A stretch of DNA of 64,000 nucleotides from Mustelus asterias (lineage: Eukaryota). Of the stretch, positions 4,298 to 60,062 are shown in pieces. The position numbers and the translations under genes were made by a program. The notes beneath the pieces were generated by a model. It made no database searches and was not told the DNA's origin. It saw only the letters and a list, made by a program, of their open reading frames with translations. Position 1 is the stretch's first letter; every line of letters starts with the position of its first letter. The stretch spans positions 16,306,001 to 16,370,000 of the forward strand of contig NC_135813.1 of assembly GCF_964213995.1 (NCBI RefSeq). The letters are read 5' to 3'.

Positions 4298-4390
4298 TAC
4301 GAGTTCAAAGCCAAGAACATTAAGAAGAAAAAGGTGAGCATCGTGGTGTCTGTGGACGGAGTGAAGGTTGTTCTGAGGAAAAAGCAAAAG
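4298..4390 (+). CDS. NOS1AP: NOS1AP/CAPON-like, PTB-domain exon (93 bp; [31 protein letters not shown])
   Basis: Polypyrimidine tract plus CCCAG acceptor; peptide recognisable as the NOS1AP PTB segment; non-canonical donor AAG|GCAAGT; phase 0/0. May be a paralog rather than the ortholog. Confidence 0.92.
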
Positions 4391-4545
4391 GCAAGTTCAT
4401 CACTTTGTGCTCTCCTGAGAGTTTTCACTGTTAATTGCCGTTGATAACCATGATCTGTTTCTTTGAGTTGGGGTTTTTGTCTTCACCCCAATGCGTTATT
4501 CTCAGGGCTGTCAGCTCTGGGTCCCGGTTCAATGTTATGACTCTC

Positions 4546-7072: not shown

Positions 7073-7131
7073 AGAAAGGAATGGACTTGGGATGCGAATA
7101 AGATGCTGGTGATGCATGACCCAATTTACAG
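7073..7131 (+). CDS. NOS1AP: NOS1AP-like exon (59 bp; RKEWTWDANKMLVMHDPIY-R)
   Basis: TTCTAG acceptor, AG|GTATAG donor; KEWTWD..KMLVM.DPIYR motif; phase 0/2. Confidence 0.93.
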
Positions 7132-14954: not shown

Positions 14955-15063
14955 AATATTCTATGTATCGCATGATTCCCAGGATTTAAAGATATTCAGC
15001 TATATTGCCAGGGATGGCATCAGTAATACCTTCCGATGCAATGTGTTTAAATCCAAAAAAAAG
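14955..15063 (+). CDS. NOS1AP: NOS1AP-like exon (109 bp; [36 protein letters not shown])
   Basis: TTTCTAG acceptor, AAG|GTTTGA donor; highly conserved PTB core peptide; phase 2/0. Confidence 0.95.
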
Positions 15064-16982: not shown

Positions 16983-17124
16983 AGCCAAGCGATGCGAATT
17001 GTCCGTACAGTGGGACAGGCCTTTGAGGTCTGTCACAAGTTGAGTTTACAACACGCTGAACAGAATGCTGATGGGCAGGCGGACGGTGCAAGCGACAAGG
17101 CGACAGAAGAGCCATTCGCTGGAG
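16983..17124 (+). CDS. NOS1AP: NOS1AP-like exon (142 bp; [48 protein letters not shown])
   Basis: CTCAG acceptor, G|GTAAAG donor; PTB C-terminal helix [17 protein letters not shown]; phase 0/1. Confidence 0.96.
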
Positions 17125-18609: not shown

Positions 18610-18749
18610 GCCATCAGTTACCTGGAGCAGAGCAGAATGGGGTGATGGACAAGGATGTGGAATCCTACAGCACCAGGGAGTTACGGTGCAATGGAGTTGA
18701 ACTGGAAATCATTAACTCGACACAAACTCGTAAAGAAAGAAATGATCAG
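18610..18749 (+). CDS. NOS1AP: NOS1AP-like exon (140 bp; G-HQLPGAEQNGVMDKDVESYSTRELRCNGVELEIINSTQTRKERNDQ)
   Basis: Pyrimidine tract plus ACTAG acceptor, CAG|GTACTT donor; open frame bridging phase 1 to 0; the start resembles the GRQLTGAE of NOS1AP as recalled. Confidence 0.8.
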
Positions 18750-21079: not shown

Positions 21080-21534
21080 NNNNNNNNNNNNNNNNNNNNN
21101 NNNNNNNNNNNNNNNNNNNNNNNNNNNNNNNNNNNNNNNNNNNNNNNNNNNNNNNNNNNNNNNNNNNNNNNNNNNNNNNNNNNNNNNNNNNNNNNNNNNN
21201 NNNNNNNNNNNNNNNNNNNNNNNNNNNNNNNNNNNNNNNNNNNNNNNNNNNNNNNNNNNNNNNNNNNNNNNNNNNNNNNNNNNNNNNNNNNNNNNNNNNN
21301 NNNNNNNNNNNNNNNNNNNNNNNNNNNNNNNNNNNNNNNNNNNNNNNNNNNNNNNNNNNNNNNNNNNNNNNNNNNNNNNNNNNNNNNNNNNNNNNNNNNN
21401 NNNNNNNNNNNNNNNNNNNNNNNNNNNNNNNNNNNNNNNNNNNNNNNNNNNNNNNNNNNNNNNNNNNNNNNNNNNNNNNNNNNNNNNNNNNNNNNNNNNN
21501 NNNNNNNNNNNNNNNNNNNNNNNNNNNNNNNNNN
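21080..21534. other. Assembly gap (455 N)
   Basis: Run of N. Confidence 1.
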
Positions 21535-24290: not shown

Positions 24291-25110
24291 AGCCAATAGT
24301 GAAGAGGGTGGAATGTTCTGCCAGTGGATGGACTTTCAGTCAAGTGGACACTTTCCCCTGCCTCAGGCTGAGCGTCTTATCCTAAGTGTTGTTGCAACTG
24401 CAGCTATCCAAACAAGTGAACCAGAGATCATGTATGCCATGTATATCACACACTAATTAGAGAGAGATTAACTTGTTTAGTACTCTAATAGATCAATAAT
24501 GTCTGTGCAGTTTATTGCTGTAATGGTTTCACTGACAGTTTATTGCAGGTCCTTGGAACCTGCATTAATATTCCAGCGCTGCTACCGTAGGCAGCTATAG
24601 ATCGGGAGTGCCGTGACTATCCAATCTCTGTTAGTGGGCGCAGTTACCTCAGTGGGTGAGGATTTAGAAAATCTACCCTACCGCGCTATGGATTACATCC
24701 CCTTCCCACCTTCTACATTCAATGTATCAAAATTCCTCCCCCTTAATGTGGCGTATCTGTACAAACATTGTACATATGCCCATAAAACAGTGATGTTCAA
24801 TTTAGTACCCTGGGATTTTAATGTGCTATAAAGAGTCAGACACAGACTCTGGAATATTGCTGTGGCAGGGGGCTTGGAAACAACTCTGCAGAGCATTTCC
24901 TCAGGAAAATCAATCGATTGGATCAAGTCCCTGACAGCATGTATTGCACAAGTCCATTTATAATTACCAAGAATTCAACTCATGGGGGTAGGAATTGGTA
25001 CGCGTTCCACCAGTTTTTTGGGGGCATAGAGAAGGTGCAAAATGCAATGTAGCAGCAGTGTGAGGTGGCCTGCTCCCACTCGGTGCAGGGGTTAGTCCCA
25101 AGGCTTCAGT

Positions 25111-25535
25111 CCTTCCCCATTCAGGGTCCTCCGGCCCTTTCCCATTCAGGGTCCTCCAGCCCTTCCCCATTCCGGATTCTCCAGCCCTTCCCCATTCAGG
25201 GTCCTCCGGCCCTTCCCCATTCAGGGTCCTCCGGCCCTTCCCCATTCAGGGTCCTCCTGCCCTTCCCCATCCGGGGTCCTCCGGCCCTTCCCCATCAAGG
25301 GTCCTCCGGCCCTTCCCCATCCAGGCTCCTCCGGCCCTTCCCCATTCGGGGTCCTCCGGCCCTTTCCCATTCAGGGTCCTCCGGCCCTTTCCCATTCAGG
25401 GTCCTCCGGCCCTTCCCCATTCAGGGTCCTCCGGCCCTTCCCCATCCGGGGTCCTCCGGCCCTTCCCCATCCAGGCTCCTCCGGCCCTTCCCCATTCGGG
25501 GTCCCCCGGCCCTTCCCCATTCCGGGTCCTCCAGC
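25111..25535. repeat. 25-bp GC-rich minisatellite CCTTCCCCATTCAGGGTCCTCCGGC, about 17 units
   Basis: Period visible directly. Confidence 0.97.
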
Positions 25536-26095
25536 AGCTTCCACTGATGCCAGCCAAAGGCAAATATTCAAAACTTTTGTCTTAAAGAAACCAATTCCTT
25601 TTTTGCAGATAAGTATGCAATTCCCCTTTGAAGGTTCCGAGTGAAGCTGCCTCTGCATTCCTTTCAGGCAGTGCACTTCACATCACAACACAACATCGCG
25701 GCTCTCTGTGACAAGGTTCTTTAGGCTGGAGTAATTTAATTGTAACAGGGACAATTCCAGGGAGGCCCATTGACGCATCCACTTTCCCATGTGATTACCC
25801 TGCTGTATTTCTTCATCTTAGAACCTGAAATCTAATTCCCGAAGCCTGTTACACAGCTCACTGCACATCTTATTGGCCTCCTGTGAAGCTATTGATGGAG
25901 TATTGCAGGAATGCACTGACAGCACTCTCGGGTACCCAGGAGGATGAGCAGCCATAACGGCCGAGAGCACGTATCCTGGGATGACAAGGAGAGGGTGGAC
26001 AGGGTGAATTTTATTTGGGTGGTTTTGCTTTTAATTTATTTTGCTTGAAATCTATAGCGTCAACTGGAATGTTCTTGACTGGTTCTCTCTTCCAG

Positions 26096-26257
26096 GATTC
26101 TGAGAATGGGACTCCTTTTGCTTCGTCAACCCAGCTGCCGCGATCTCCCAGCAGCCAGTGCTCCTCCCCAACCCCGCTGGCATCCCAGCACCACCTGCAG
26201 CTGCTCCAGCACCAGCTCCTACAGCAGCAACAGCAGACCCAGGTGGCTGTGGCACAG
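26096..26257 (+). CDS. NOS1AP: NOS1AP-like exon (162 bp; DSENGTPF..TPLASQHHLQLLQHQLLQQQQQTQVAVAQ)
   Basis: TTCCAG acceptor, CAG|GTTAGT donor; the QQQQQTQVAVAQ coiled-coil start of NOS1AP; phase 0/0. Confidence 0.92.
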
Positions 26258-31415: not shown

Positions 31416-31581
31416 GTGCATCTGTTGAAAGACCAGCTGTCGGCTGAGACTGCGGCGAGGATCGAGTCCCAGGCACGCGTTCACCAGCTGATGCTACAGA
31501 ACAGGGACCTCCTGCAGCATGTGTCCCTCTTAGTCAAGCAGCTGAAGGATCTGGAAAACAGAATGTGTGCACAGCCAACCG
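31416..31581 (+). CDS. NOS1AP: NOS1AP-like exon (166 bp; [56 protein letters not shown])
   Basis: GTCAG acceptor, G|GTAAGG donor; NOS1AP coiled-coil peptide; phase 0/1. Confidence 0.96.
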
Positions 31582-32680: not shown

Positions 32681-33990
32681 CTGTTAGGGGGCGACTGGGT
32701 ACTGTCAGTAAGGTGATGGGGTTGCGGGATTCCCCTGCATGTTGTGAATAATGTGCATGTAACATCCCCCACTGGTTCCCCGCCCGAAGGTCAGCCTGAC
32801 AGACAGACTAGCCGTCTGGTCAGGGTGGGTGGGAGTGGGCCAATGACAGCTGCAGGACCAGGGTCAGACCTCACTGGGGAAAAGAGACTGATACAGGGAT
32901 TGGAGAGGGGGTGTTGGGAGCACGGTGTGGAGTGGGGGTTCGATCTCTGTGGGGGTGCCGCTGATTCTGGGATATGGAGGTGGAGGGAGTATGGAGGCTC
33001 CACTGGAGAAGGTTAGTGGTGAATTGGAGGCCTGAGAATGGGAGAGGAGGTAGGGATTGGAGTTAGGGGGGAGACAGGGAGGTCAGAGGCCTCATAGAGA
33101 AAGTATTGGGTAGGGGGAGAGATGCCTGGTCACGGGGTTACCCAGGCTGGAGCTAGCAGGCGGTTACTACCATGATTGGGCAGCCCTCAAATGGGTACGA
33201 TGTTGTGTTTCCCAAGACTCAGAAAGTCCACCATTCACTGTTACAGTCAAAAAGTTGAATAACACTATATTTAAATTGTCATCCCACCGCTTCAAAGTCA
33301 TCAGTCAGTCACCCACCTTCCTGCTTCCATTTTGGCCACAAATGGGCTCATTGGTGTTGGGAGTTCCTACAGATTTTAACCACCCCACCACCACCTGACC
33401 CAAACACACCCATTTATTTGGTTAAAATTCCCTCTTTTTTGCATAAAATGGAAGATATACATTGAATGTCAAAACCATAGTAGAAGCGAGGCATTAAATA
33501 CTTTAAAACAATTGTAGCTCACTTTCTTAAGTTAACCGTCACTTCATAACTACAGGTTGTAGATTGATTAATTCCCAATGATCCAATTGGCAAGGACAGC
33601 AGCGAATAATAGGTGATAAAAGCCTAAAATCCAAGAGTGAGGTGAATGTAGTCGTACTGTATCCACTAGCAATGGCTGTAGGTTATAGAGTCCATGATAA
33701 ACATTGTACCATGTCTATTGTAGAATAGAGACGTCCAGTGTGTCCTTCTGTCTCCTGGAACAGTCTAAAACTCTTGTTGGGGGGACATCACTTCATTAGT
33801 TCCAAATGTTGTGTCCCCTAATATCAGTAAGATATAGTGATAACTAATTACTATGTATGGGGATTATTTGTACATAAAATCACTCCAAGTCTGTTCCAAA
33901 GTGGGTTACCACAGATGGACTCTAACCTGAAGCATGTTGAAGCCTACAAACCACTAACGTATGTTTTATCTCTTTTTTAAAAATCCTCAG

Positions 33991-34333
33991 CTGATCCAGG
34001 TTTGAGTTCAATTTCAGAACAAATTTCATTATTGAGTCTTCATCACCATGATCTGTTAATGAATGGACCTTCCACCTCAACTCCTGGAAAAGCTCCTCCT
34101 GCTTCTTGGGGGCCAAGCGCACTGACTTGCCATGACCACGGTCAGTCTTTCAAAAATCTCATGCACTTGGGCAAGGAGAACCAGGAAAATAGCAGCTGCT
34201 GGACAATGAATGGGAAGAAAGAGGCAAATAGAAGGATTGAAGGCTTGGAGAGCAGTGAAAAAGCTCCTGCCAGGGAAAAGCTGGCAGCTGAATTTAAATT
34301 GGATGACCTGGGCTTGGAAGCAAAGACTGAAAG
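33991..34333 (+). CDS. Penultimate coding exon (343 bp), C1orf226-like (A-DPGLSSISEQ..GQSFKNLMHLGK..LEAKTE-R)
   Basis: T-rich tract plus CCTCAG acceptor; phase 1 matches the previous exon; 113 open codons; AG|GTAGAG donor in phase 2 matches the next exon. Confidence 0.78.
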
Positions 34334-34526
34334 GTAGAGTTAAATGTATTGTTACTCTGTTTAACTATATGCTCCCAACAACCCTACTATCTTACCTTTC
34401 ACACTCTACTGTCCTCTCTCAGTTGGAGTAGACACGCAGGCTGAGGGAGGTTAGCTTCCTGGTGTTTTAACACCTCCTTCGCTCCACGTCCTACACAGAG
34501 AAATGTGGGCTGTGCTCACTCTCTCA

Positions 34527-34595
34527 GTAAGAGTTTTAACAACACCAGGTTAAAGTCCAACAGGTTTATTTGGTAGCAAATGCATCTCCACATCA
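34527..34595. mobile_element. Short Penelope-like pLTR fragment with inverted end and an 11-bp TSD (TCACTCTCTCA)
   Basis: TSD at 34516-34526 and 34596-34606; CAACACCAGGTTAAAGTCCAACAGGTTTATTTGG body plus inverted GCATCTCCACATCA. Confidence 0.8.
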
Positions 34596-34729
34596 TCACT
34601 CTCTCACCCCAGAGATAAAATATTTTCCACTCCTTTGTGTTCATTCTGCTTGCCTGATGATAGCTTAACTGAACAAGAAGCAAAAGGCAATCCACTAAAG
34701 AATCTCCACGGTGGCCTTTCTATCAGAAA

Positions 34730-35049
34730 GCGGCACGGTGGCACAGTGGTTAGCACTGCTGGCTCACAGTGCCAGGGACCCAGATTCAGTTCCAGCCTCG
34801 GGCGACTGTGGAATCTGCACATTCTTCTCTTGTCTCCCCAGTTTCCTCCCACACTCCAAAAGTGCGTAGGTTAGGTGGATTGGCCATGCTAAATTGCCTC
34901 TTAGTGTCCGAAGTGTGTGTTAGGGAGATTAGTGGGGTAAAACGTGGGGTTACGGGATAGGGCCTGGGTAGGATGCTCTGTCGAAGAGTTGGTGCAGACT
35001 CAATGGGCCGAATGGCCGCCTTCTGCACTGTAGGGTTTCTATGATTCTA
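34730..35049 (+). mobile_element. HE1-type SINE
   Basis: Head through to the TTCTATGATTCTA tail. Confidence 0.9.
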
Positions 35050-35401
35050 AAATACCACACCAAAAATATACTGTTTTCTAAATTTTAGCTTGCTTTCTAA
35101 TATTTTCAGAAATAAGCACATATTCTATTTTCACCCCTACTCCCCCTTGTGTGGAAGATGCTGACTGCTGCTAAGGTCGGGTTCCATGGTTCGGAGGAAG
35201 GACAACAGTCTGCCAGCCAGTACCTCTCACCCAAGTCAGCTATCTTCCTGTGACACCCTGCGGAGTTGTTTTATTACAGTGCAAACTATTTCCACCCTTG
35301 CCCAATGTCAATGTGCACACATAAATGTGCTTCGACAATGATCAGAACGCAAAGACTTTCTGCTACTCCATTGGCCTGAGGATGCTGAAGTCATGTTGAA
35401 G

Positions 35402-35486
35402 GTGACAAAGGGTCATCCCGACTCGAAACATTGGCTCTATTCTCTCTCCAGAGATGCTGAAATTTTCCAGCATTTTTTGTTTTTGT
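35402..35486 (+). mobile_element. Second Penelope-like pLTR family fragment with a degenerate hammerhead motif
   Basis: GTGACAA-A-GGGTC-ATCCC-GACTC-GAAA-CATT; homologous to 54876-55015. Confidence 0.6.
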
Positions 35487-35659
35487 TGCTGAAGCCCACT
35501 GTAACTGACTTGGCTGTGATCTGGCAACTTAGCACAGCCCAGGACTCCTCATATCCTACACTGTGCACAAAGCTATGGAGAGTTTAGATAAATCTGTTTT
35601 CAGTGCAGGTTCAGGCCTGATTTGACCAAGACCTTATTGAAATCAACTGGTATCTTTGG

Positions 35660-36337
35660 CAACAGAAAACTAGCATGCGGGTACAGCAGATAATAAAGAA
35701 ATCAAATGGAATGTTGGCATTTATAGCTAAAGGAATAGAATATAAAGGTAAGAAAGTATTGTTGCAACTATACAAGGCAATGGTGAGGCCGCACCTGGAG
35801 TATTGTGCACAGTTTTGGTCCCCTTATTTGAGGAAAGATGTAGCGGCATTGGAGGCAGTTCAGAGGAGGTTCACCAGATTGATTCCAGAGATGAGGGATT
35901 TGTCGTATGAAGAGAGATCGAACAGTTTAGGCCGATACTCTCTGGAATTTAGAAGAATGAGGGGAGATCAAGTTGAGGTATACAAGATGATAAAAGGTGT
36001 GGATAAAGTAGACATGGAGCGGATGCTTCCTCTTGTGGGGCATTCTAGGACGAGAGGTCATAATCTTAGGATAAGGGGCAGCAAATTTAAAACAGAGTTG
36101 AGGAGAAACTACTTCTCCCAAAGGGTTGTGAATCTGTGGAATTCGCTACCCCAAAACGCAGTGAATGCTGGGACAGAGAATAAGTTTAAGGAGGCGTTAG
36201 ACAGATTTTTAATTGGTTGAAGGGTTATGGGGAGAAGGCAGGAAAATGGGGATGAGGAGCATATCAGCCATGATCGAATGGCGGAGCGGACTCAATGGGC
36301 CGAATGGCCTAATTCTGCTCCTATATCTTATGAACAT
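35660..36337 (+). mobile_element. Young 5'-truncated CR1 LINE 3' end (uninterrupted 181-aa ORF2 C-terminus)
   Basis: RPHLEYCAQFWSPY..RRMRGD..FSQRVVNLWNSLP and the tail. Confidence 0.95.
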
Positions 36338-37493
36338 TGAGCCATCACTGTGATAGTTGCCCATTTTGATCTACGTAACAAAACGACATGTTTCTTTTCA
36401 CTTTTTAACAATTAAACTCTTTAATAAAATTGGATGTGAAATTGTCGCTGAGCAGGTTAAGCATTTCTCTCCTGACAACCAGGCATCTGGTGCGGGGATT
36501 CCGATCACAGATCTAATCATGGTAATTGGAAAACTGCATTCGAGATGAAGAGCTGTGAGTGATCCTAAATACTGCCCATCAACTTTGTGGAAATGAGATG
36601 AGCTTGAAAAATGAACTGTGCCCATTCAGATTTCAAAGAAGCTTCATTGGAAGAACTCTCACAATGTAATCTTCTTTTGAACTGCAGTGAATGGGCCATT
36701 CCCAATATGGAAGTACAGTTAAAAGGAAGGGAGAATACCTTAGGTTCTTAGCAATCTATGAATGCCTTAAACCTCGGACATGTTGCCAGCTCAGATTTGT
36801 CATCAGGTGACTGCACCCTTTTGGTTGCCCAGGGTTATTCAGTGCTCCAGCAGAGTGAAGAGGGGTTTCCAAAATAAATCCCCCCCCACTTTAGTTATCA
36901 TCCCACCTTTACTGGTCGCCTATTTATGGCCTCCTCTGATGACTCTTAAGGTGGTTGTTTTCTCTTGTGTGCATCTTAACGCATTGACCATTCATCCCAT
37001 CGATTGACCGGGGGAATAGCACAATCAAGTACGATTTTGTCACACCTGAAGTCCACATACGTGGGCTTTTTAGCCAGACTATTTGGATCAGGAGCAGAAC
37101 GTCCAGAGCAGGCATTGTGCTCTTTTCCATCAGGGATGGAATTTGTCTGCTCCAATCCATCAAGTTTCACCAAGAAAGCTGTGGTATTAGCCCCACCTCC
37201 GGCATTTACTAGCATTGTTGTTTCAAGTTGAACGAAACTTTCTGAGAAAGGTGAATTTCCTCCGGTTTCAGTGTATTCCCAGTGTATAATCAAACAGATG
37301 AAATTTGATGCAGAGGCGATTCAAATGATTAATTTTGGTAGGAAGAACACAAAGTGACAATATAAAGTAAAGGGTACAATTCTGAGGGGGTTGCAGGAGA
37401 GAGGGATCTTGTGTATGTGCACATAAATCATTGGAGGTAGCAGACCAGAATGAGAGAGTAGTTAAAGTATACAGTTCTCTAAGCTCTATTTAA

Positions 37494-37671
37494 TGATGTG
37501 GAGATGCTGGTGTTGGACTGGGGTGGGCACAGTAAGAAGTCTGACAACACTAGATTAAAGTCCAACAGGTTTATTTGGAATCACGGGTTTTCGGAACGCT
37601 GCTCCTTCATCAGGTGAGTAGGGTGTAGTCACCTGTTGGACTTTAATCTAGTGTTGTGAGACTTCTTACTG
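37494..37671. mobile_element. Penelope-like insertion with inverted arm, a 7-bp TSD (TATTTAA) and a degenerate hammerhead on the - strand
   Basis: TSD at 37487-37493 and 37672-37678; arms 37530-37570 and 37631-37671 are inverted copies. Confidence 0.85.
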
Positions 37672-37898
37672 TATTTAAAGGGGCATTGAGTACAAGGGCA
37701 ATGAGGTTCTGTTAAATTTGTATGAAAGAGTGGGTCTGCCTCAACTGGAGAATTGCATTCAGTCCTAAGTGCCACGTTTCAATAAAGATGTGAAGCATTA
37801 GAGAGTGCAGAAAAGATGCATGAGAGTGGATCCGGGTTGAGGAATTTCAGTTACGTAGATAGATTGGAGAAGTTGAGAAAGTTTTCCTCAGAGGCGAA

Positions 37899-38566
37899 TT
37901 GATTTAGATTTGATTTATTATTGTCACATGTATTAACATACAGTGAAAAGTATTGTTTCTTGCGTGCTATACAGACAAAACATACCGTTCATAGAGAAGG
38001 AAAGGAGAGAGTGCAGAATGTAGTGTTACAGTCATAGCTAGGGTGTAGAGAAAGATCAACTTAATGCGAGGTCAGTTCATTCAAAAGCCTGACAGCAGCA
38101 GGGAAGAAGCTGTCCTTGAATCGATTGGTACGTGATCTCAGACTTTTGTATCATTTTCCTGACGGAAGAAGGTGGAAGAGAGAATGTCCGGGGTGCATGG
38201 GGTCCTTAATTATGCTGGCTGCTTTGCCGAGGCAGCAGGAAATGTAGACAAAGTCAATAGATGGGAGGCTGGTTTGCGTGATGGATTGGGCTACATTCAC
38301 GACCTTTTGTAGTTCCTTGTGGTCTTGGGCAGAGCAGGAGCCATACCAAACTGTGATTCATTTGTAAACGTTGGTGAGAGTCGTAGCTGACATGCCAAAT
38401 TTCCTTAGTCTTCTGAGAAAGTAGAGGCGTTGGTGGGCTTTCTTAACTATAGCGTCGGCATGGGGGGACCAGGACAGGTTGTTGGTGATCTGGACACCTA
38501 AAAACTTGAAGCTCTCGATTCTTTCTACTTCGTCTCCATTGATGTAGACAAGGGCATGTTCTCCTT
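37899..38566 (-). mobile_element. Rex1/Babar-clade LINE 3' region
   Basis: Peptide VYINGDEVERIESFKFLGVQI..KAHQRLYFLRRLRKFG; near-identical to 26760-27243. Confidence 0.9.
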
Positions 38567-40815
38567 TACGGTAGAGAAGGTTGAGAGGAGATTTGATAGA
38601 GGCATTCAAAATTGCAAAGGCTCTGGATGGGGTAGATAGGAAGAAACTGTTCCCGCTGGTTAATGGCACGAGAATGAGCGGAAATAAATGTAAGGTAATT
38701 GATAAAAAGAAGTAATGGAGATGTGAGGAAAACCTTTTTCACGCAGTGAGTGGTTAAGATCTGGAGTGCGTTGGCTGAGAGTGTGGTGGAGGTAGGTTCA
38801 ATCAGGTCATTCAAGAGAGAACTGGATTATTATCTGACAAAGGATCATGGGAAGAAGATGGGGGAATGACACTGGATGCATTGCTCATTTGGAGAGCTGG
38901 GACAGGTACGCTGGGCCAAATGGCCTCCTACTGTTCTGTAATAATGCTGTGATTCTACAAAGTTTTATGATTCTACATTAATTTTGGAAAACAGTGATAA
39001 GCCCTGTCTGCTGATCTTCTGCCCTGAATTGTTTCTGCTGAGTTCCCCTCCAAATAGATGTTGATAAGGGTGATGTTCTCATCAGCGCGGGGTCCTTCTT
39101 TTCCATTCAGTGTGCATTCTTGATAGCTTATTCAGTGTGAGATGTTGAAAGATGGGTATTCCCCCTCCAGACTGTTACCTTGCCTTTCCTAATGAGATGA
39201 TTGAACTTCCTGCGGCTCTGGTCTGTAGTCTAGGGTAGGTGAGAGAGTTGGTGCTCAGTGCAGTTGTCACCTCTCCCGAGGATTATTGGCACAGAATCCC
39301 CGCAATTTATGACTCCATGGCTGCCTTTCCTCCAGCAGGACCTGGAGATCTGAGCTTGTAAAATCCTGTGTTCTTCCCTGACTGGGTGCCGTGCCGAGCC
39401 GCCTTGTTTGAATGAATGTTCCAGTGGTTCGCCCTTTCCAATAGTATGAGAGAAAGATTGATGAGAGCTGTGATGAAGCCATATGAGAGTCAAGTGAGTG
39501 AATGAGCCCTAACACCGTTCTCTCCTTAAACAGCTCTTCCCCAGCTTGCTGCTGGAAATGTGCACAATCAACAGTCCTCTTGAAGACTAAACTTCCATGA
39601 GCTACAGAAGATTGTGCCCATCTTACATTAATTTTGCGCAGTTGTTACGCCAATGGTTATGCTGGTGTAAATCTACATGCAGACACCGCTCCGGCCTACC
39701 CATGGACTCAAATCTTTAACCATGGCTATAACAACATCGCAAATTACCAGATCCATTTAGCCCCTGATCAGAGACCCGAGGAGTCGACTGTTTCACACTC
39801 GGGGTGACTGGAACTTCACCAGTTTGTAATGTTGCCACCAGACTGCCACGTCCAGCTCTTCCAGTGCTGAAATGAAGCATTTCTTCCCACGTGGTTTTGT
39901 TAAATATCTACAATGACAACACCTAGAGGGCCTATTAGAACCCTGCCCATTGGCGAACAGTGAGAATGTGGTTAAAATGGTGGTCAGGCATTCCCAATGT
40001 GTTCACACCTGCCGCCATTTTAATCATGCGATTTCTGCTTGTGAGGATGTGCCTGCCACCTCGTCATTCCCGCTGGGTTTAGGCAGGAGTGCTTCCTCCT
40101 GGTGCCCAGCAGTCTCAGTGGTCCAGGTCTCTCACTAATACCTGCTCACATTGGCCCTGTCACCCCTCAACACCTTGCACACAGGCCCGAGTTCACATCT
40201 GCCCTTTAGATGTTTGCTGTTGATGAGATATTCCTTTTTTTTGCTGAGTATGGTGCTAAATTTGTGAGGAAAACAATTCAATCACATTGAATTTATTTAT
40301 AGACTGCGCTTTGCTTCCATCTCCCCTTATTGTTCTCGGTTAAATTGAAAGCCTATTTTTTAAAGATTGTGATGGATTTGAAAATTCTTTAAAATTGCAA
40401 TTGGCTCCCCGTCTCCCAGCCTAAATGGATAAACTTTGAAATGTGGCCGTCATCCAGCAGTTTGTTTTATGTAACATTTCTCTTCATGTTGCGCAGTAAG
40501 TCATAAAATTAGCTAAATTGCAGACTATTATCATGTCTAGCAGTCAAAAGCTTTCATCGGAATGACAGGGCCACTACTATAAAGATCCATTTGCAGACAA
40601 TGCTCTGAGTAATCTATTGAGACATTTAATTGCAATTGGACGATCAAATCTGGCAAGCTGACTATTTTACACAGCCATCATTATCTTCGAATCGCTGTTT
40701 TTAATAAGAAACTATCTGATGGTTGCTGCAGTTTCATGGCTGTTGGACAATTTAGGAGTGAGTGGAATATGATCAGAAAGAGCCGTGTTTGAATTGTCTC
40801 TCTTCTTTGTTCAAG

Positions 40816-41404
40816 GTTTAATCAGGCCATACCTCGCTTAAACCCACCACCGCCCATCATGAGGAAGCGCTCGACCAGGTCACTCCTGATAGCGACTGAG
40901 ACAACCTCGCCAAGCATTGAGCAAGTGGTCATGAACAGCCTGCTGCAGAGTTCACACGCGTCAAGTTTTACAGATGTTTCCTCCTGTACTTTTGCTGCGT
41001 CTGTCTTTGAGGCTGATGCTGGACTGTCCACAGAGGTGCGAATGACTGGGCCTTCGCCTGCAGATTTCCATTTTGCAGCCAAACCTTCCACTTCGATCCT
41101 CGACGAAGAGTCAAGTGAGAAAAACAGAACTGTAAACACAACTCCTGGAAGTTGTGGGAACCAGCCTTGGACAACGACGCCCCTTGCAAATTTCCCACTG
41201 CATGGTCAAGGCGGCAACTGTGATGTTGGGGACAATGCCATGGGCACCCCACCCTTTTCCCCACCAGTTAATGAAACCTGCCTGCACATCAGTTTCTCAG
41301 AGGATGAGTTGTTGTACAATGATGCTGAAGACTCAAGGGAACATCAAAGAGTCTCACTGGATGAAACAGAAGATCAAAACTTAAATCGTCTAACTTCTGG
41401 CTGA
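40816..41404 (+). CDS. Terminal coding exon, C1orf226-like (R-FNQAIPRLNPPPPIMRKRSTRSLL...LNRLTSG*)
   Basis: Pyrimidine tract plus TCAAG acceptor in phase 2; open frame of 195 codons to TGA at 41402-41404; PRLxPPPPIxRKR motif. Confidence 0.82.
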
Positions 41405-41784
41405 AGCTGTTGTTCGTTGTTACAGGAATATTTTCTCTTCATCTTCAGTGATCTGCAGTTATACTCTGACATCTTTCAAGACCAGCTGACCTCAAGCTGT
41501 AGAAAGACTCTCAAGCTCTGAAAAGCCTTTCTTAATACTTCCATGATTACTAGTCTTCTGAAGGATGATGTCGATCGCATGCCCAGTAAGAGAACCGGAG
41601 TTTGAATGCTAAATCTATTGGAGATCATTGATAGTCAGGGTTGAATTCAAGCCAGCGATGCACAATTCCAAGTTGCGTTGGGTTCAACTTGTAGATGGGC
41701 TACGTAAATTCCAAAAGCACCATGGGAATGTGCTAGGAGTAGTACACACACTTTCCGGGGATGTAATTATCAGGAAATAGGGAA

Positions 41785-41790
41785 AATAAA
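41785..41790 (+). promoter_or_regulatory. Candidate proximal polyadenylation signal AATAAA
   Basis: AATAAA about 380 nt after the stop codon; use not shown. Confidence 0.3.
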
Positions 41791-48684: not shown

Positions 48685-50545
48685 AATGTTCTCATGAATC
48701 AACCCCTGCTTGGATGGTGTTGGTTATAAAGCTGAGGAACTTTAGAATTGTCGGAAATAAACAATAAAATGCGGTCTAGATCTGTATGTGACATCCATTT
48801 CTGACGTCTTAACCAACTTTGTAGCAGTTCACATTGGTAGTTGCAAAGTAATACCACAAGCACTTAGAGAGTAGGCTGTTTTTTCAAACATTGTATATTC
48901 CCTCTTTTTTGTAAATGCAGTTACTGTGTAAATATGATTACAGTTACTTGATGAAAAGTGTGAATTTTCTGAAAGAAATAAGGTGACTTTTTTTCAATTG
49001 TTTTCCCATTTTCCTGATCAAACCAGTGCTGCCATTGATACCAAATTTGAACTGTAGAATTTGTGTTGCACCTTACTGCTCTAAAACTCATTTGAAATTA
49101 AAGTCTAATGGGGTTTGTTAAAATATGTGTGTGATATTTTCACAATGTACTCTATCATTTCTATCATATAAGAACAGGCTGGAGCTAAATATGACATAAA
49201 ATATCAATGGGTCAGATACTGATTCCAGTTCCATTGTTACCACAGTATATCGACTGTAACTTAGTTGTTAGCACTCTCGCCTTTGAGACACAAGGTTCTG
49301 GGTTCAAGAGCTTCTCACTCCTGTGCAGTTTTGTTGTCCTTTCAGTTGAGATGTGTGCATTCCAATTAACTAATTCAGCAGCAAGCTTTTGGGAGTTTAA
49401 TATAAAGATGGTTATTTATTCTCACACACTTACCTCAAATTGACACAAATTCATAAACTCAGTCTCAAATACAGACACAATGATTGGATACAGATAAAGA
49501 TAGTGCATTTTTACAAATTACAGTTAATTTGGTCTGGTATGAGGTACTTTCTCCCTGAGTGGATGAGGAAAAGTACTGTAGGGAGAATGAGCTAGCCGAC
49601 CACTGCACCGTGGTACAGGAGGCCATTCAAGAGGAGGGAGCTAAAAGACTAATTGTAGTTTAGGAGATTCTATAATTAGGGGGATTGATAGCATCTTTTG
49701 TAAGCCAGATTGTGAGCCCCACATGGTATCTTGCCTGCCCGGTGCCAGGGTGAGGGACATCTCTGACCGGCTTGAAAGGATATTGATGGGGGAGGAGGAG
49801 GAGCCACTTGCTGTGGTCCACGTTGGGACAAACAACATAGGTAAGACTAGGAAAGAGGTCCTGTTTGGGGACTATCAAGCACTAGGAACTAAATTAAAGA
49901 ATAGATCCTCAAGGGTTATAATCTCTGGATTACTACTCGAGCCATGTACAAATTGGCATAGGGTTGAAAGAATTAAGGAAGTTAACACATGGCTAAAGGA
50001 GTGGTGCGGGAAAGAGTGGTTCCATTTCATGGGGCATTGGCATCAGTATTGGAACAGGAGGGATCTGTACCGTTGGGATGGTCTTCACCTGAACCGATCT
50101 GGGACCAGTGTTCTAGCGAAAAGGATAAGTAGGGTGTTCACAAGGACTTTAAACTAGCAAGTTGGGGAGAAGGGAACAGTAAAATTACGGGAAACAAAGC
50201 AGCAGGTTAGCATGTGGGGAGAAAGTTCCAACTACATCAAAAATCAGGAAAAAAGTTAAAAGGAAGGAGAACACAGGAGATGTTATTAATAGAGGTGTTA
50301 AAATTCAAAAAGAAGGTACAACAACTAGCATAAGGGCACTCTATCTGAATGCTCGTAACATTCGAAACAAGGTAAATGAGCTGACGGCACAAATCATTGC
50401 AAATGGGTATGATTTGGTGGCCATTACAGAGACATGGTTGCTGGATGGTCATGACTGGGACTTAAATCTCCAGGGGTATCAGACTGTTTGGAGGGACAGA
50501 CAGGAAGGTAAGGGAGGTGGTGTAACTCTGATATTTAAGAATGAC

Positions 50546-50649
50546 CATTGTAAGAAGTCTCACAACACCAGGTTAAAGTCCAACAGGTTTATTTGGCAGC
50601 ACAAGCTTTCGGAGCACTGCTCCTTCATCAGGTGAATGGGAGTTGCGTC
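50546..50649 (-). mobile_element. Penelope-like 104-bp insertion inside the CR1 endonuclease region, with a 13-bp TSD
   Basis: ATTTAAGAATGAC at 50533-50545 and ATTTAAGGATGAC at 50650-50662. Confidence 0.88.
50600..50634 (-). ncRNA. Minimal type I hammerhead ribozyme motif
   Basis: Minus strand reads CAC-CUGAUGA-A-GGAGC-AGU-GCUCC-GAAA-GC-UU-GUG: intact core boxes, 5-bp stem II, palindromic AAGCUU in place of stem III and CAC/GUG stem I. Confidence 0.72.
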
Positions 50650-53600
50650 ATTTAAGGATGACATCAGGGCGATAGTGAGAGATGATATAGGTTCTATGGA
50701 AAAAATGGTTGAATCCATTTGGGTGAAAATTAGAAATAGTAAGGAGAAAAAGTCACTGATAGGCATAGTCTATAGGCCACCAAATATTGACATCATGGTG
50801 GGGCGAGAAATAAACAAAGAAATAACTGATGCATGTAAAACTAGTAGAGCAATTACCATAGGGGATTTTAATATACATGTCAATTGGTTAAACCAGGTCA
50901 GTCAAGACAGCCTTGAGGAGGAGTTCATAGAATGTATCCGCGATAGCTTCCTGGAACTATATGTAATGGAACCTACGAGGGAGCAAGCTATCCTAGATCT
51001 GGTCCTGTGTAATGAGACAGGAATAATTAATGATCTTACAGTTAGGGATCCTCTCGGAAGAAGCGATCACAGTATGGTTGAATTTAAAATACAGATGGAG
51101 CGTGCGAATGTAAAATCCAATACCAGTGTCTTGTGCTTAAACAAAGGAGATTACAATGGGATGAGGGAGGAGTTGGCCAAGGGAGTCTGGGAGCAAAAAC
51201 TTTATGGTGGGACAATTTGAGGAACAGTGGAGGACTTTCAAAGCGATCTTTCACAGTGCTCAGCAAAAGTATATACCAGTGATAAGGACTGTGGAAAAAG
51301 AGATAATCAGCCAGGAATATCTAAGGAAATAAAGAAGGGCATCAAACTGAAAGCAAATGCATATAAAGTGGCAAAGATTAGTGGGAAACTAGAGGATTGG
51401 GAAATCTTTAAAGGTCAACAAAAAGTCATGAAAAAAGCTATAAAGAAAAGTGAAACGGATTATGAGAGTAAACTAGCTCAGAATATAAAAACAGATAGCA
51501 AAAGTTTCGACAAATATATAAAATGAAAAAGAGTGGCTAAACATTGGTCCTTTAGAGGATGAGAAGGGGGATGTAATAACTGGATATGAGAAATTGGCTG
51601 AGGCATTGAACAGGTATTTTGTGTTGGTCTTCACAGTGGAAGACACAAATAACATGCCAAAAATTGATGACAGGAAGGCTATGGCAGGTGAGGTACCTAG
51701 AAACTATCATTATCACGAAAGAGGTAGTGTTGGGCAAGGTAATGGGGCTAAAGGTAGACAAGTCTCCTGGTCCTGATGGAATGCATCCCAGGGTACTAAA
51801 AGAGATGGCCGGGGAAATAGCAAATGCACTAGTGGTAATTTACCAAAATTCGCTGGACTCTGGGGTGGTTCCCACAGATTGGAAAACAGCAAATGTGACG
51901 CCACTGTTTAAAAAAGGAGGTAGACAGAAGGCGGGTAACTATAGGCCAGTTAGCTTGACTTCTGTAGTAGGAAAAATGCTTGAATCTATCAACAAGGAAG
52001 AAATAGCGAGATATCTGGATATAAATTGTCCCACTGGGAAGACGCAGCATGGGTTCATGAAGGGCAGGTCATGTTTGACTAATTTGGTGAAATTCTATGA
52101 GAACATTATGTGACAATGGGGAACCTGTGAATGTGGTGTATCTGGATTTCCAGAAGGCATTTGACAAGGTGCCACACCAAAGGCTGCTGCATAAGACAAA
52201 GGTGCACAGTGTTACGGGTAATGTATTAGCATGGATAGAGGAATGATTAACTGACAGAAAGCAAAGAGTGGGGGTAAATGGGTGTTTTTCTGGTTGGCGA
52301 TCAGTGACTAGTGGTGTGCCTCAGGGATCAGTGTTGGGACCGCAATTGTTTACGATTTACATCGATGATTTGGAGTTGGGGACCAAGTGTAGTGTGTCAA
52401 AATTCGCAGATGACGGTAAGATGAGTGGCAGAGCAAAGTGTGCAGAGGATGCTGAAAGATTGCAAAGGGATATAGATAGTCTAAGTGAGTGGGCGAGGGT
52501 CTGGCAGATGGAGTACAATGTTGGTAAATGTGAAATCATTAATTTTGGTCGGCAAAATGGACAATTAGTTAAGTGATAAAAAATTGCAGCATGCTGCTGT
52601 GCAGAAGGATCTGGGTGTCCTTGTGCATGAATCACAAAAAGTTGGTTTGCAGGTGCAGCAGGTAATTAAGAAGGCAAATGGAATTTTGCCCTTCATTGCT
52701 AGAGGGATGGAGTTTAAAGACAGCGAGGTTATGTTGCAGCTGTATAAGGTGCTGGTGAGGCCACACCTGGAGTACTGTGTACAGTTTTGGTCTCCTTACT
52801 TGAGAAAGGATATACTGGCACTGGAGGGGGTGCAGAGGAGATTCACTAGGTTGATTCCGGAGTTGAGAGGGTTGGCTTATGAGGAGAGACTGAGTAGACT
52901 GGGGCTATACTCATTCGAATTCAGACAAATGAGGGGAGATCTTATAGAAACATATAAGATTATGAAGGGAATAGATAAGATAGAAGCAGGGAAGGTGTTT
53001 CCACCGGCGGGTGAAACTAGAACTAGAGAGCATGGCCTCAAAATAAGGGGGAGCAGATTTAGGACTGAGTTGAGGAGGAACTTCTTCACACAAAGGGTTG
53101 TGAATCTGTGGAATTCCCTGCCCAGTGAACCAGTTGAGGCTACCTCATTGAATGTTTTTAAGGCAAGGATAGATAAATTTTTGAACAGTAAAGTAATTAA
53201 GGATTATGGTGAGCGGGCGGGTAAGTGGAGCTGAGTCCATGAAAAGATCAGCCATAATGTTATTGAATGGCGGAGCAGGCTCGAGGGGCCAGATGGCCTA
53301 CTCCTGCTCTTAGTTCTTATGTTCTTACGTCTCTGATTAAAGATGTCCCACGTGGCAGGCCCGTGGTTTCTTGAGTTAACATTCTTGAGGTCAATGTTGA
53401 AATTGGAACAGATTAAGTACTTTGGCTGTTTGATGACTTCCAGCTAGTTCCAGAGACTGGTCCTCAGACTGGCTGATGACTGGTTCTGATGGATCTGCTG
53501 GGATTTCGGGTAATAAAGGTACAGTCCCTGAAACCAGGTTAATCACATGGCTGCTGGATAAATACTTCTGAAGCCCAGCCAGCCTAGTTTGGATGGGGTG

Positions 53601-57685: not shown

Positions 57686-60062
57686 AAAGTTTATTTATTA
57701 GTCACAAGTAGGCTTACATTAGCACTGCAATAAAGTTACAGGGAAAATCCCCTAGTCGCCACACTCTCGCGCCTGTTCGGGTACACTGAGGGAGAATTTA
57801 GCATGGCCAATAAGAACATAAGAACATAAGAATTAGGAGCAGGAGTAGGTCATCTGGCCCCTCGAGCCTGCTCCGCCACTCAATAAGATCATGGCTGATG
57901 TTTTCGTGGACTCAGCTCCACTTACCCGCCCGCTCACCTTAATTCCTTTACTGTTCAAAAATGTACCTACCATTGCCTTAAAAACATTCAATGAGGTAGC
58001 CTCAACTGCTTCACTGGGCAGGGAATTCGACAGATTCACTGCCCTTTGTGTGAAGAAGTTCCTCCTCAACTCAGTCCTAAATCTGCTTCCCCTTATTTTG
58101 AGGCCATGCCCCCCAGTTCTAGTTTCACCCGCCAGTGGAAACAACTTCCCTGCTTCTATCTTATCTGTTCCCTTCATAATCTTATATGTTTCTATAAGAT
58201 CTCCTCTCATTCTTCTGAATTCCAATGAGTATAGCCCCAGTCTACTCAGTCTCTCCTCATAAGCCAACCCTCTCAACTCCGGAATCAACTGAGTGAATCT
58301 CCTCTGCACCCCCTCCAGTGCCAGTATATCTTTTCTCAAGTAAGGAGACCAAAATTGGACACAGTAGTCCAGGTGTGGCCTCACCAGCACCCTATACGGC
58401 TGCAACATAACCTCACTGTTTTTAAACTCCATCCCTCGAGCAATGAAGGACAAAATTCCATTTGTCCTCTTAATTACCTGCTCCACCTGCAAACCAACTC
58501 CTTGTGATTCTTGCACAAGGACACTCAGGTCCCTCTGCACAGCAGCATGCTGCAATTTTTTACCATTTAAATAATAGTCCATTTTGCTGTTATTCCTACC
58601 AAAATGGATGACCTCACATTTACCAACATTGTACTCCATCTGCCAGATCCTCGCCCACTCACTTAGACTATCTATATTCCTTTGCAGACTTTCAGCATCC
58701 TCTGCACACTTTGCTCTGCCACTCATCTTAGTGTCATCTGCGAATTGTTCCCCAACTACACTTGGCCCCCAACTTCAAATCATCTATGTAAATCATAAAC
58801 AATTGCGGTCCCAACACTGATCCCTGAGGCAGACCACTAGTCACTGATCACCAACCAGAAAAACACCCATTTATCCCCACTCTTTGCTTTCTGTTAGTTA
58901 ACCAATCCTCTATCCATGCTAATACATTACCCGTAACACTGTGCCCCTTCATCTTATGCAGCAGTCTTTGGTGCGGCACCTTGTCAAATGCATTCTGAAA
59001 ATCCAGATACACCACATCCACAGGTTCCCCATTATCCACTGCACATGTAATGTTCTCAAAGAATTCCACCAAATTAGTCAAACAACCTGCCCTTCCTGAA
59101 ACCATGCTGCGTCTTACCAATGGGACAATTTATATCCAGATGTCTCACTATTTCTTCCTTGATGATAGATTCAAGCATTTTCCCTACTACAGAAGTTAAG
59201 CTAACCGGCCTATAGTTACCTGCCTTATGTCTACCTCCTTTTTTAAACAGTGATGTCACATTTGCTGTTTTCCAATCTGTGGGAACCACCCCAGAGTCCA
59301 GCGAATTTTGGTAAATTACCACTAGTGCATTTGCTATTTCTCCTGCTGTCTCTTTTAGTACCCTGGGATGCATTCCATCAGGGCCAGGAGACTTGTCTAC
59401 CTTTAGCCCCATTACCTTGCCCAACACTACCTCTTTCGTGATAATGATAGTTTCTAGGTCCTCACCTGCCGTAGCCTTCCTGTCATCAATTTTTGGTATG
59501 TTATTTGTGTCTTTCACTGTGAAGACCGACACAAAATACCTGTTCAATCCCTCAGCCATTTTCTCATTTCCAGTTATTACATCCCCCTTCTCATCCTCTC
59601 AAGGACCAATGTTTACTTCAGCCACTCTTTTTCATTTTATATATTTGTAGAAACTTTTGCTATCTGTTTTATATTCTGAGCTCGTTCACCCTCATAATCC
59701 ATCTTACTTTTCTTTATAGCTTTTTTCATGACTTTTTGTTGACCTTTAAAGACTTCCCAATCCTCTAGTTTCCCACTAATCTTTGCCACTTTCTATGCCT
59801 TTCTTTCAATTTGATATCCTCCTTTATTTCCTTAGATATCCATGGTTGATTATCTCTTTTTCTACAGTACTTCCTTATCACTGGTATATACTATTGCTGA
59901 GCACCTAACCTGCACATCTTTGGACTGTGGGAGGAAACCGGAGCACCCGGAGGAAACATGGGGAGAACGTGCAAACTCTGCACAGTGACCCAAGCTGGGA
60001 ATCGAACCCGGGTCCCTGGCGCTGTGAGGCAGCAGTGCTCACAACTGTGTCACCTTGCTGCC
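57686..60062 (-). mobile_element. V-SINE with alternative tail, split into 57686-57811 and about 59900-60062 by a CR1 insertion
   Basis: ..GCATGGCCAAT | GCACCTAACC.. rejoins to match the intact copy near 61731-61755. Confidence 0.88.
57812..59903 (-). mobile_element. 5'-truncated CR1 LINE of the same subfamily as 49545-53327
   Basis: Minus ORFs nearly identical to the + copy (KSPGPDGMHPRVLKE, DF..AFDKVPH, RPHLDYCVQFWSP); (AAGAACAT)n tail. Confidence 0.96.

Follow-up and report, generated by a model that had tools for sequence, protein, structure and literature searches.

A shark NOS1AP paralog that ends in a C1orf226-type tail and lacks the nNOS-ligand exon

A 64,000-nucleotide stretch of Mustelus asterias DNA (G000:C13:16306001-16370000, hereafter the window) was analyzed for the identity and ending of a NOS1AP-family gene. 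The window very probably holds exons 3–11 of a NOS1AP paralog whose product combines a PTB domain, a coiled coil and a C1orf226-type tail without the nNOS-binding exon, and this product is predicted to serve as an nNOS-independent PTB scaffold like the mammalian NOS1APc form. It also seems fairly probable that C1orf226 represents the ancestral NOS1AP 3′ end (in amphioxus and probably the bilaterian ancestor) and the nNOS tail a vertebrate read-through insertion, with a second, nNOS-blind gene kept in most non-placental jawed vertebrates and lost in placentals, which would rely on splicing instead.

The nine window exons, when joined, equaled residues 60–659 of P0001 letter for letter. P0001 is the NCBI model under Mustelus asterias and carries PF00640 and PF15429 (PTB, coiled coil and DUF4628); the gene model is thus already in RefSeq under automatic names. 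The first-pass annotation, made from the letters alone, had proposed a 600-residue spliced product, which was recovered as the window part of a 659-residue protein. The gene has 11 coding exons, and exons 1 and 2 lie at C13:16193199 and about 16198340, ~108–113 kb before the window. The PTB domain scored 112 bits and was NOS1AP-like, and it is followed by Q-rich coiled-coil exons as in the NOS1AP/CAPON family. Residues 1–172 of the window protein were identical to the shark protein encoded on C8 at 146 positions (85%). The two exons placed after the coiled-coil exon, leading to a C-terminus of LTSG, had fitting AG/GT ends and phases. One contig each of sequencing runs X17 and X1 bridged the second tail joint (34333/40816), with 33990-34330 directly abutting 40813-41500; the X17 contig had no differing letters and may come from the source material. 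No bridging contig was seen for the first tail joint (31581/33991) among the rows listed, and equal depth values on both exons (5.01, 10.9 and 6.23) provided an indirect pointer to it.

The absence of the canonical nNOS PDZ-ligand exon was investigated in 234 kb of C13 around the gene. A profile of eight canonical tails run against all six frames gave a best E-value of 9.2 among 9341 frames, and tblastn with the shark and muntjac canonical tails reached at best E 0.11 among the matches listed. The same profile detected the tail on C8 at E 1e-34, and when C8 exon 10 was searched against the genome, only C8 gave a meaningful E-value (three matches at E up to 10). The earlier claim that this locus lacks such an exon was therefore upheld by both methods. 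A strong internal donor was sought in the middle exon (33991-34333), and none was found. Two alternative endings were rejected: reading through past 31581 adds just 15 residues and ends in DRL, and reading through past 34333 meets a stop at once. The pattern extended to 149 proteins from two paralog searches (one of them with the marsupial protein; among matches listed). None of these carried the exon-10 markers SQDSLL or GIASEY. The proline-rich motif was found in 130 and the late acidic motif in 129, and not one of the latter ended in V, I or L. A core-profile sort classed 135 of the 149 as paralog-like; the proline-rich motif was present in 13 of the other 14, and the exon-10 markers in none of them.

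The coiled-coil and PTB exons each matched two genome loci, one on C13 and one on C8. Exon 10 of the C8 gene encodes a C-terminus of DEIAV before its stop codon. About 150 nucleotides into this exon lies an internal phase-1 GT donor, from which the reading frame continues into C1orf226 exon 1, 28 kb further along, and exon 2, at 38 kb; Pfam scored these two exons at 96.6 and 165.8 bits. This join is used in NCBI models P0031 and P0032 and was present in 84 of the 120 matches listed (219 found), from sharks and chimaera to teleosts and amphibians. The mammalian intergenic form consists of 153 nucleotides of exon 10 plus two C1orf226 exons (PMC12660744, in part). The range of the join therefore dates the mammalian exon-10/C1orf226 arrangement to at least the jawed-vertebrate ancestor, and as judged from these models, the mammalian "intergenic" NOS1AP-C1orf226 splice is conserved in sharks. 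Since C8 holds canonical NOS1AP together with C1orf226, the first-pass suggestion that the fused form is the only one applies to the window locus and fails for the genome.

Because the true NOS1AP sits on C8, the window gene is, on sequence grounds, a NOS1AP paralog, as had been suspected. In a tree of the PTB and coiled coil (45 rows, 357 columns), the window gene fell within a 16-row clade (support 100/97) and did not group with the separate 14-row NOS1AP clade (100/97); a further tree analysis again separated the two (100/99). The 16-row clade comprised sharks, rays, bichir, teleosts, lungfish, amphibians, turtle, squamates and a marsupial. A marsupial-protein query, with 120 of 2154 matches listed, added marsupials, monotremes, birds, a crocodilian, turtles, lizards, amphibians and gar, and contained no named placental copy. 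The paralog is thus apparently absent from or lost in placental mammals, a weakly supported point because only those 120 matches were listed. A bat protein (P0207) was considered as a placental paralog and rejected, as it grouped with NOS1AP in the tree. The marsupial paralogs (P0324, P0342, P0343) are short, at ~485–517 residues, and long-branched, a possible sign that selection had weakened before the presumed loss in placentals.

The neighborhoods of the two genes also differed. A TTLL11 exon lies ~74 kb upstream of the window gene on the opposite strand (L047:2707-3351 (−), C13 about 16.119 Mb, E 2.5e-101), and DDR and UAP-type genes lie within 1 Mb of NOS1AP on C8. The neighbors of human NOS1AP are presumably UAP1 and DDR2. 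TTLL11 and the paralog are arranged divergently, and the first exon of TTLL11 probably lies at L051:9601-9999; human TTLL11 is at 9q33.2 (PMC9994169, in part). NDUFA8 was sought as a neighbor, and no CHCH match was found near the gene. PBX and two-exon olfactomedin genes were located 3–5 Mb from the window gene on C13, with counterparts on C8. We take these shared genes to match the duplicated blocks of human 1q23 and 9q33-34. The PBX and olfactomedin block and the clade running from sharks to marsupials are consistent with an origin of the paralog in an early vertebrate genome duplication, and it is likely an ohnolog. Supplementary ohnolog tables (one file per study) held no NOS1AP entry.

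The resemblance of the tail to C1orf226 was concentrated in the last exon. This exon scored 27.5 bits against Pfam DUF4628 (cut-off 26), aligned to C1orf226 exon 2 with an hhalign probability of 96.7, and was found in the 234 kb by a C1orf226-type profile at E 6.6e-7. It bears a proline-rich/basic motif and a late acidic motif, and a phase-2 intron directly before the proline-rich motif is common to the window gene and the C8 gene. The middle exon sits where NOS1AP has exon 10a and C1orf226 exon 1, with fitting phases. Its homology to these two exons, suggested by motifs that appeared colinear by eye, was not borne out by hhalign and shuffle tests. The FEN motif was absent from all 135 paralog-core proteins. 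The first-pass description of both tail exons as C1orf226-like thus holds for the last exon, and the middle one did not score as such. The tail as a whole looks low-complexity, with three short conserved motifs, and a search of the ESM Atlas with it gave no usable match.

The age of the C1orf226-type tail was assessed with a cluster-representative profile search, from which the best 150 of 2207 matches were taken; these included lamprey, amphioxus, echinoderm, abalone and tunicate proteins. Both amphioxus tails matched a vertebrate-only C1orf226 profile (23.8 and 24.8 bits; 0 of 200 shuffles, with shuffle maxima of 5–6) and showed the order FEN, PKIDPPP...LKTTQD and late acidic motif, although Pfam DUF4628 did not match them. 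Three of the six lamprey proteins scanned passed the DUF4628 cut-off at 50.7–54.7 bits. A profile built from 12 invertebrate tails gave 80 bits for amphioxus, 19–39 bits for four intergenic vertebrate tails and 10.3 bits for the window tail (0 of 200 shuffles each); the 12 tails were hand-picked after the motifs had been seen, which biases the profile, and part of the signal comes from exon 10a. The canonical tail had no invertebrate match among 459 proteins (best E 4) and weakly matched a single lamprey model, P0162 (E 0.008). P0162 and the lamprey models P0182 and P0301 are near-identical to one point, after which the former continues into a read-through with a weakly exon-10b-like acidic stretch and the latter into a C1orf226-type tail; lampreys may already have both endings. 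The earlier proposal of an ancient C1orf226-type tail agrees with the amphioxus result. These comparisons give good support to a chordate-ancestral tail and weak support to a bilaterian one, and the nNOS ligand appears to be vertebrate-specific. Because the amphioxus tails match the vertebrate C1orf226 profile, the ancestral gene probably had the form that mammals produce as the "intergenic" isoform, with the nNOS ligand as a vertebrate addition.

Several observations weigh against parts of this interpretation. The window tail contains E-R-F at residues 463–465, and nNOS can be bound by an ExF site without further elements (PMC5350102, in part); among the 129 relatives examined, just 16 had ERF. 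The RNA status of X17 and X1 was guessed, no run being recorded as RNA, and X1 is from another organism and study. The middle exon gave an hhalign P of 0.37 against exon 10a and 0.02, not significant, against C1orf226 exon 1, and with each of three profiles, all 35 paralog middle exons were matched or exceeded by at least one of their 200 shuffles. Each of the 16 invertebrate tails from outside amphioxus was likewise equalled or outscored by at least one shuffle when run against the vertebrate profile. Approximately unbiased (AU) tests of the duplication against the cyclostome split rejected none of the orders (p-AU 0.17, 0.27 and 0.10; 15 of the 45 rows left out by choice).

The strongest competing explanation differs in history only. 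An nNOS-ligand exon may once have been present in the paralog and have disappeared through a deletion joining exon 10a with C1orf226 exon 1, a course of events to which we give somewhat less than even chances. The single 343-nucleotide exon, running from phase 1 to phase 2 where C8 has exons of ~150 and ~335 nucleotides, would suit such a fusion, as would the presence of FEN at the C1orf226 start in amphioxus, abalone and lampreys and its absence throughout the paralog core. The weak exon-10b-like stretch of P0162 points the same way, since the nNOS-type tail may therefore predate the duplication. However, the middle exon fails the homology tests to both presumed fusion partners, a second lamprey copy and P0177 keep a FEN-like motif with no exon 10b in their models, and the AU tests cannot order the events. 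P0177 was placed as sister to the paralog clade (97/89), at a point where long branches meet.

It is improbable that C1orf226 was a separate gene fused to NOS1AP by read-through in vertebrates, with the invertebrate resemblance arising from chance matches of low complexity. This idea draws on the C1orf226 transcripts made independently in mammals (PMC12660744, in part), on direct scores at noise level for non-chordate tails, and on hhalign P values of only 0.016–0.3 for the 12 hand-picked invertebrate tails against C1orf226. Yet three motifs, LKTTQD among them, follow the same order in the amphioxus tail, which outscored every one of its 200 shuffles; lamprey tails are above the DUF4628 threshold, and the C1orf226-type tail is fixed in the paralog. 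It is highly unlikely, and largely refuted, that the window gene is itself the NOS1AP ortholog or that its model is an artefact of annotation in which a terminal exon was overlooked: the shared NCBI protein name and the indirect evidence for the first tail joint speak for this reading, but the canonical locus with its DDR and UAP-type neighbors on C8, the position of the gene outside the NOS1AP clade and the lack of a canonical tail in the 234 kb contradict it.

Under the preferred interpretation of an nNOS-blind paralog with an ancestral tail, an early vertebrate genome duplication would have produced the NOS1AP paralog, which kept the C1orf226-type C-terminus of the ancestral family, and the nNOS ligand would have arisen in vertebrates when the exon-10 donor was read through into the intron. 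Binding of nNOS needs the ExF region, and the IAV end stabilizes it; the two elements lie within residues 400–506 (PMC5350102, in part), and the nNOS-binding parts therefore lie in the missing exon. The window protein is thus putatively unable to bind nNOS through a C-terminal ligand. The PTB of NOS1AP binds Scribble, synapsin and Dexras1 (PMC10647562, a review, in part), and KANK1 binds NOS1APc at cell junctions through the PTB and more weakly through the C1orf226 part (PMC11607453, in part). The 85%-identical PTB region of the paralog may bind the NOS1AP partners Scribble and KANK1 at cell junctions and feed Hippo and actin control, with the low-complexity tail potentially offering three short conserved motifs. 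Because the PTB is conserved, the ExF/IAV exon is missing and E-R-F is unconserved, the protein probably acts as a PTB scaffold at cell junctions, independently of nNOS. A solved NOS1AP structure was sought, and only other PTB domains were found.

Features of the window gene (window positions) and of the canonical locus on C8
Feature	Position	Strand	Remarks
Coding exon 3 (PTB)	4298..4390	+	GC donor
Coding exon 4 (PTB)	7073..7131	+	
Coding exon 5 (PTB)	14955..15063	+	95% identity to corresponding C8 exon
Coding exon 6 (PTB end)	16983..17124	+	
Coding exon 7 (linker)	18610..18749	+	
Coding exon 8 (Q-rich coiled-coil start)	26096..26257	+	
Coding exon 9 (coiled coil)	31416..31581	+	phase-1 end, GT; 71% identity to C8 copy
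Coding exon 10	33991..34333	+	343 nt, AG..GT, phase 1 to 2
Last coding exon	40816..41404	+	after AG; C-terminus LTSG-stop; C1orf226 exon 2 homologue
Candidate poly(A) signal AATAAA, first after stop	41785..41790	+	sequence only
Shark NOS1AP exon 10 and C1orf226 exons	G000:C8:67613481-67652114 (L005, L008, L009)		

The intron after coding exon 3 is of the GC-AG type, beginning with GC and not GT (4390-4391). Intron 2 includes a long, minisatellite-like tandem array of ~30-nucleotide units with minus-strand open frames (1-2914), and an intronic tandem repeat at 25053-25641 yields proline-rich open frames in several phases. A 455-base N stretch at 21080-21534 is also intronic. Broken copies of a long interspersed nuclear element (LINE)-type retrotransposon, with endonuclease and reverse transcriptase pieces, were found at 49645-53231 (+) and 57836-59647 (−) and are presumably CR1-like; shorter retrotransposon fragments lie at 35621-36217 and 37400-38900. 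Downstream of the gene, a degenerate histone H2B-like stretch was recognized by eye (L035:6900-7172 (+)).

NOS1APc was reportedly first described by Clattenburg in 2015. We found no literature on dkey-34e4.1, and none on the paralog or an ancestral tail in a search that had subscription papers and most supplements outside its reach; Clattenburg 2015 may discuss conservation. The main text of PMC12660744 contains none of the words zebrafish, shark, paralog, vertebrate, Xenopus or Drosophila, and zebrafish NOS1AP duplicates are mentioned only in passing (PMC7353957). Mammalian kidney expresses predominantly the intergenic NOS1AP-C1orf226 product, and nephrotic disease follows when it is lost (PMC12660744, in part). 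If the ancestral form is as proposed, the exons of C1orf226 ought to be counted as part of NOS1AP, and the three motifs conserved to amphioxus would be places to seek function and damaging variants. The unstudied twin in zebrafish, frog and chicken could mask knock-out phenotypes and would offer a natural nNOS-blind comparison.

Among known systems, the window gene resembles mammalian NOS1APc (PMC12660744 and PMC11607453, both in part) in its PTB, coiled coil, C1orf226 exon-2-type end and lack of an nNOS PDZ ligand, as well as in the phase-2 intron before the proline-rich motif. It differs in that it is a gene of its own on a different chromosome and its form is constitutive, not an alternative splice product; it has one middle exon in place of exon 10a and C1orf226 exon 1 and lacks the FEN, KTTQD and PDLLSF motifs. 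Relative to canonical NOS1AP/CAPON (NOS1APa), it shares the 85% identity over residues 1–172 and 71% in the coiled-coil exon (shark C8), whereas it has no exon 10b and hence neither the ExF site nor the terminal IAV ligand (PMC5350102, in part). The amphioxus NOS1AP (P0160 cluster, Branchiostoma) likewise has a PTB, a coiled coil and the proline-rich/basic and late acidic motifs, with no PDZ-ligand tail in its models; unlike the window gene, it keeps the FEN and KTTQD motifs, and it is therefore closer to NOS1APc. The window gene represents the shark within the group of database models named "CAPON-like" or si:dkey-34e4.1 in fish, amphibians, reptiles, birds, monotremes and marsupials, which come from automatic annotation only. 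As read from these sequence comparisons, it belongs to a known family as a variant in which the NOS1APc-like form is fixed, and its main value lies in the reframing of C1orf226.

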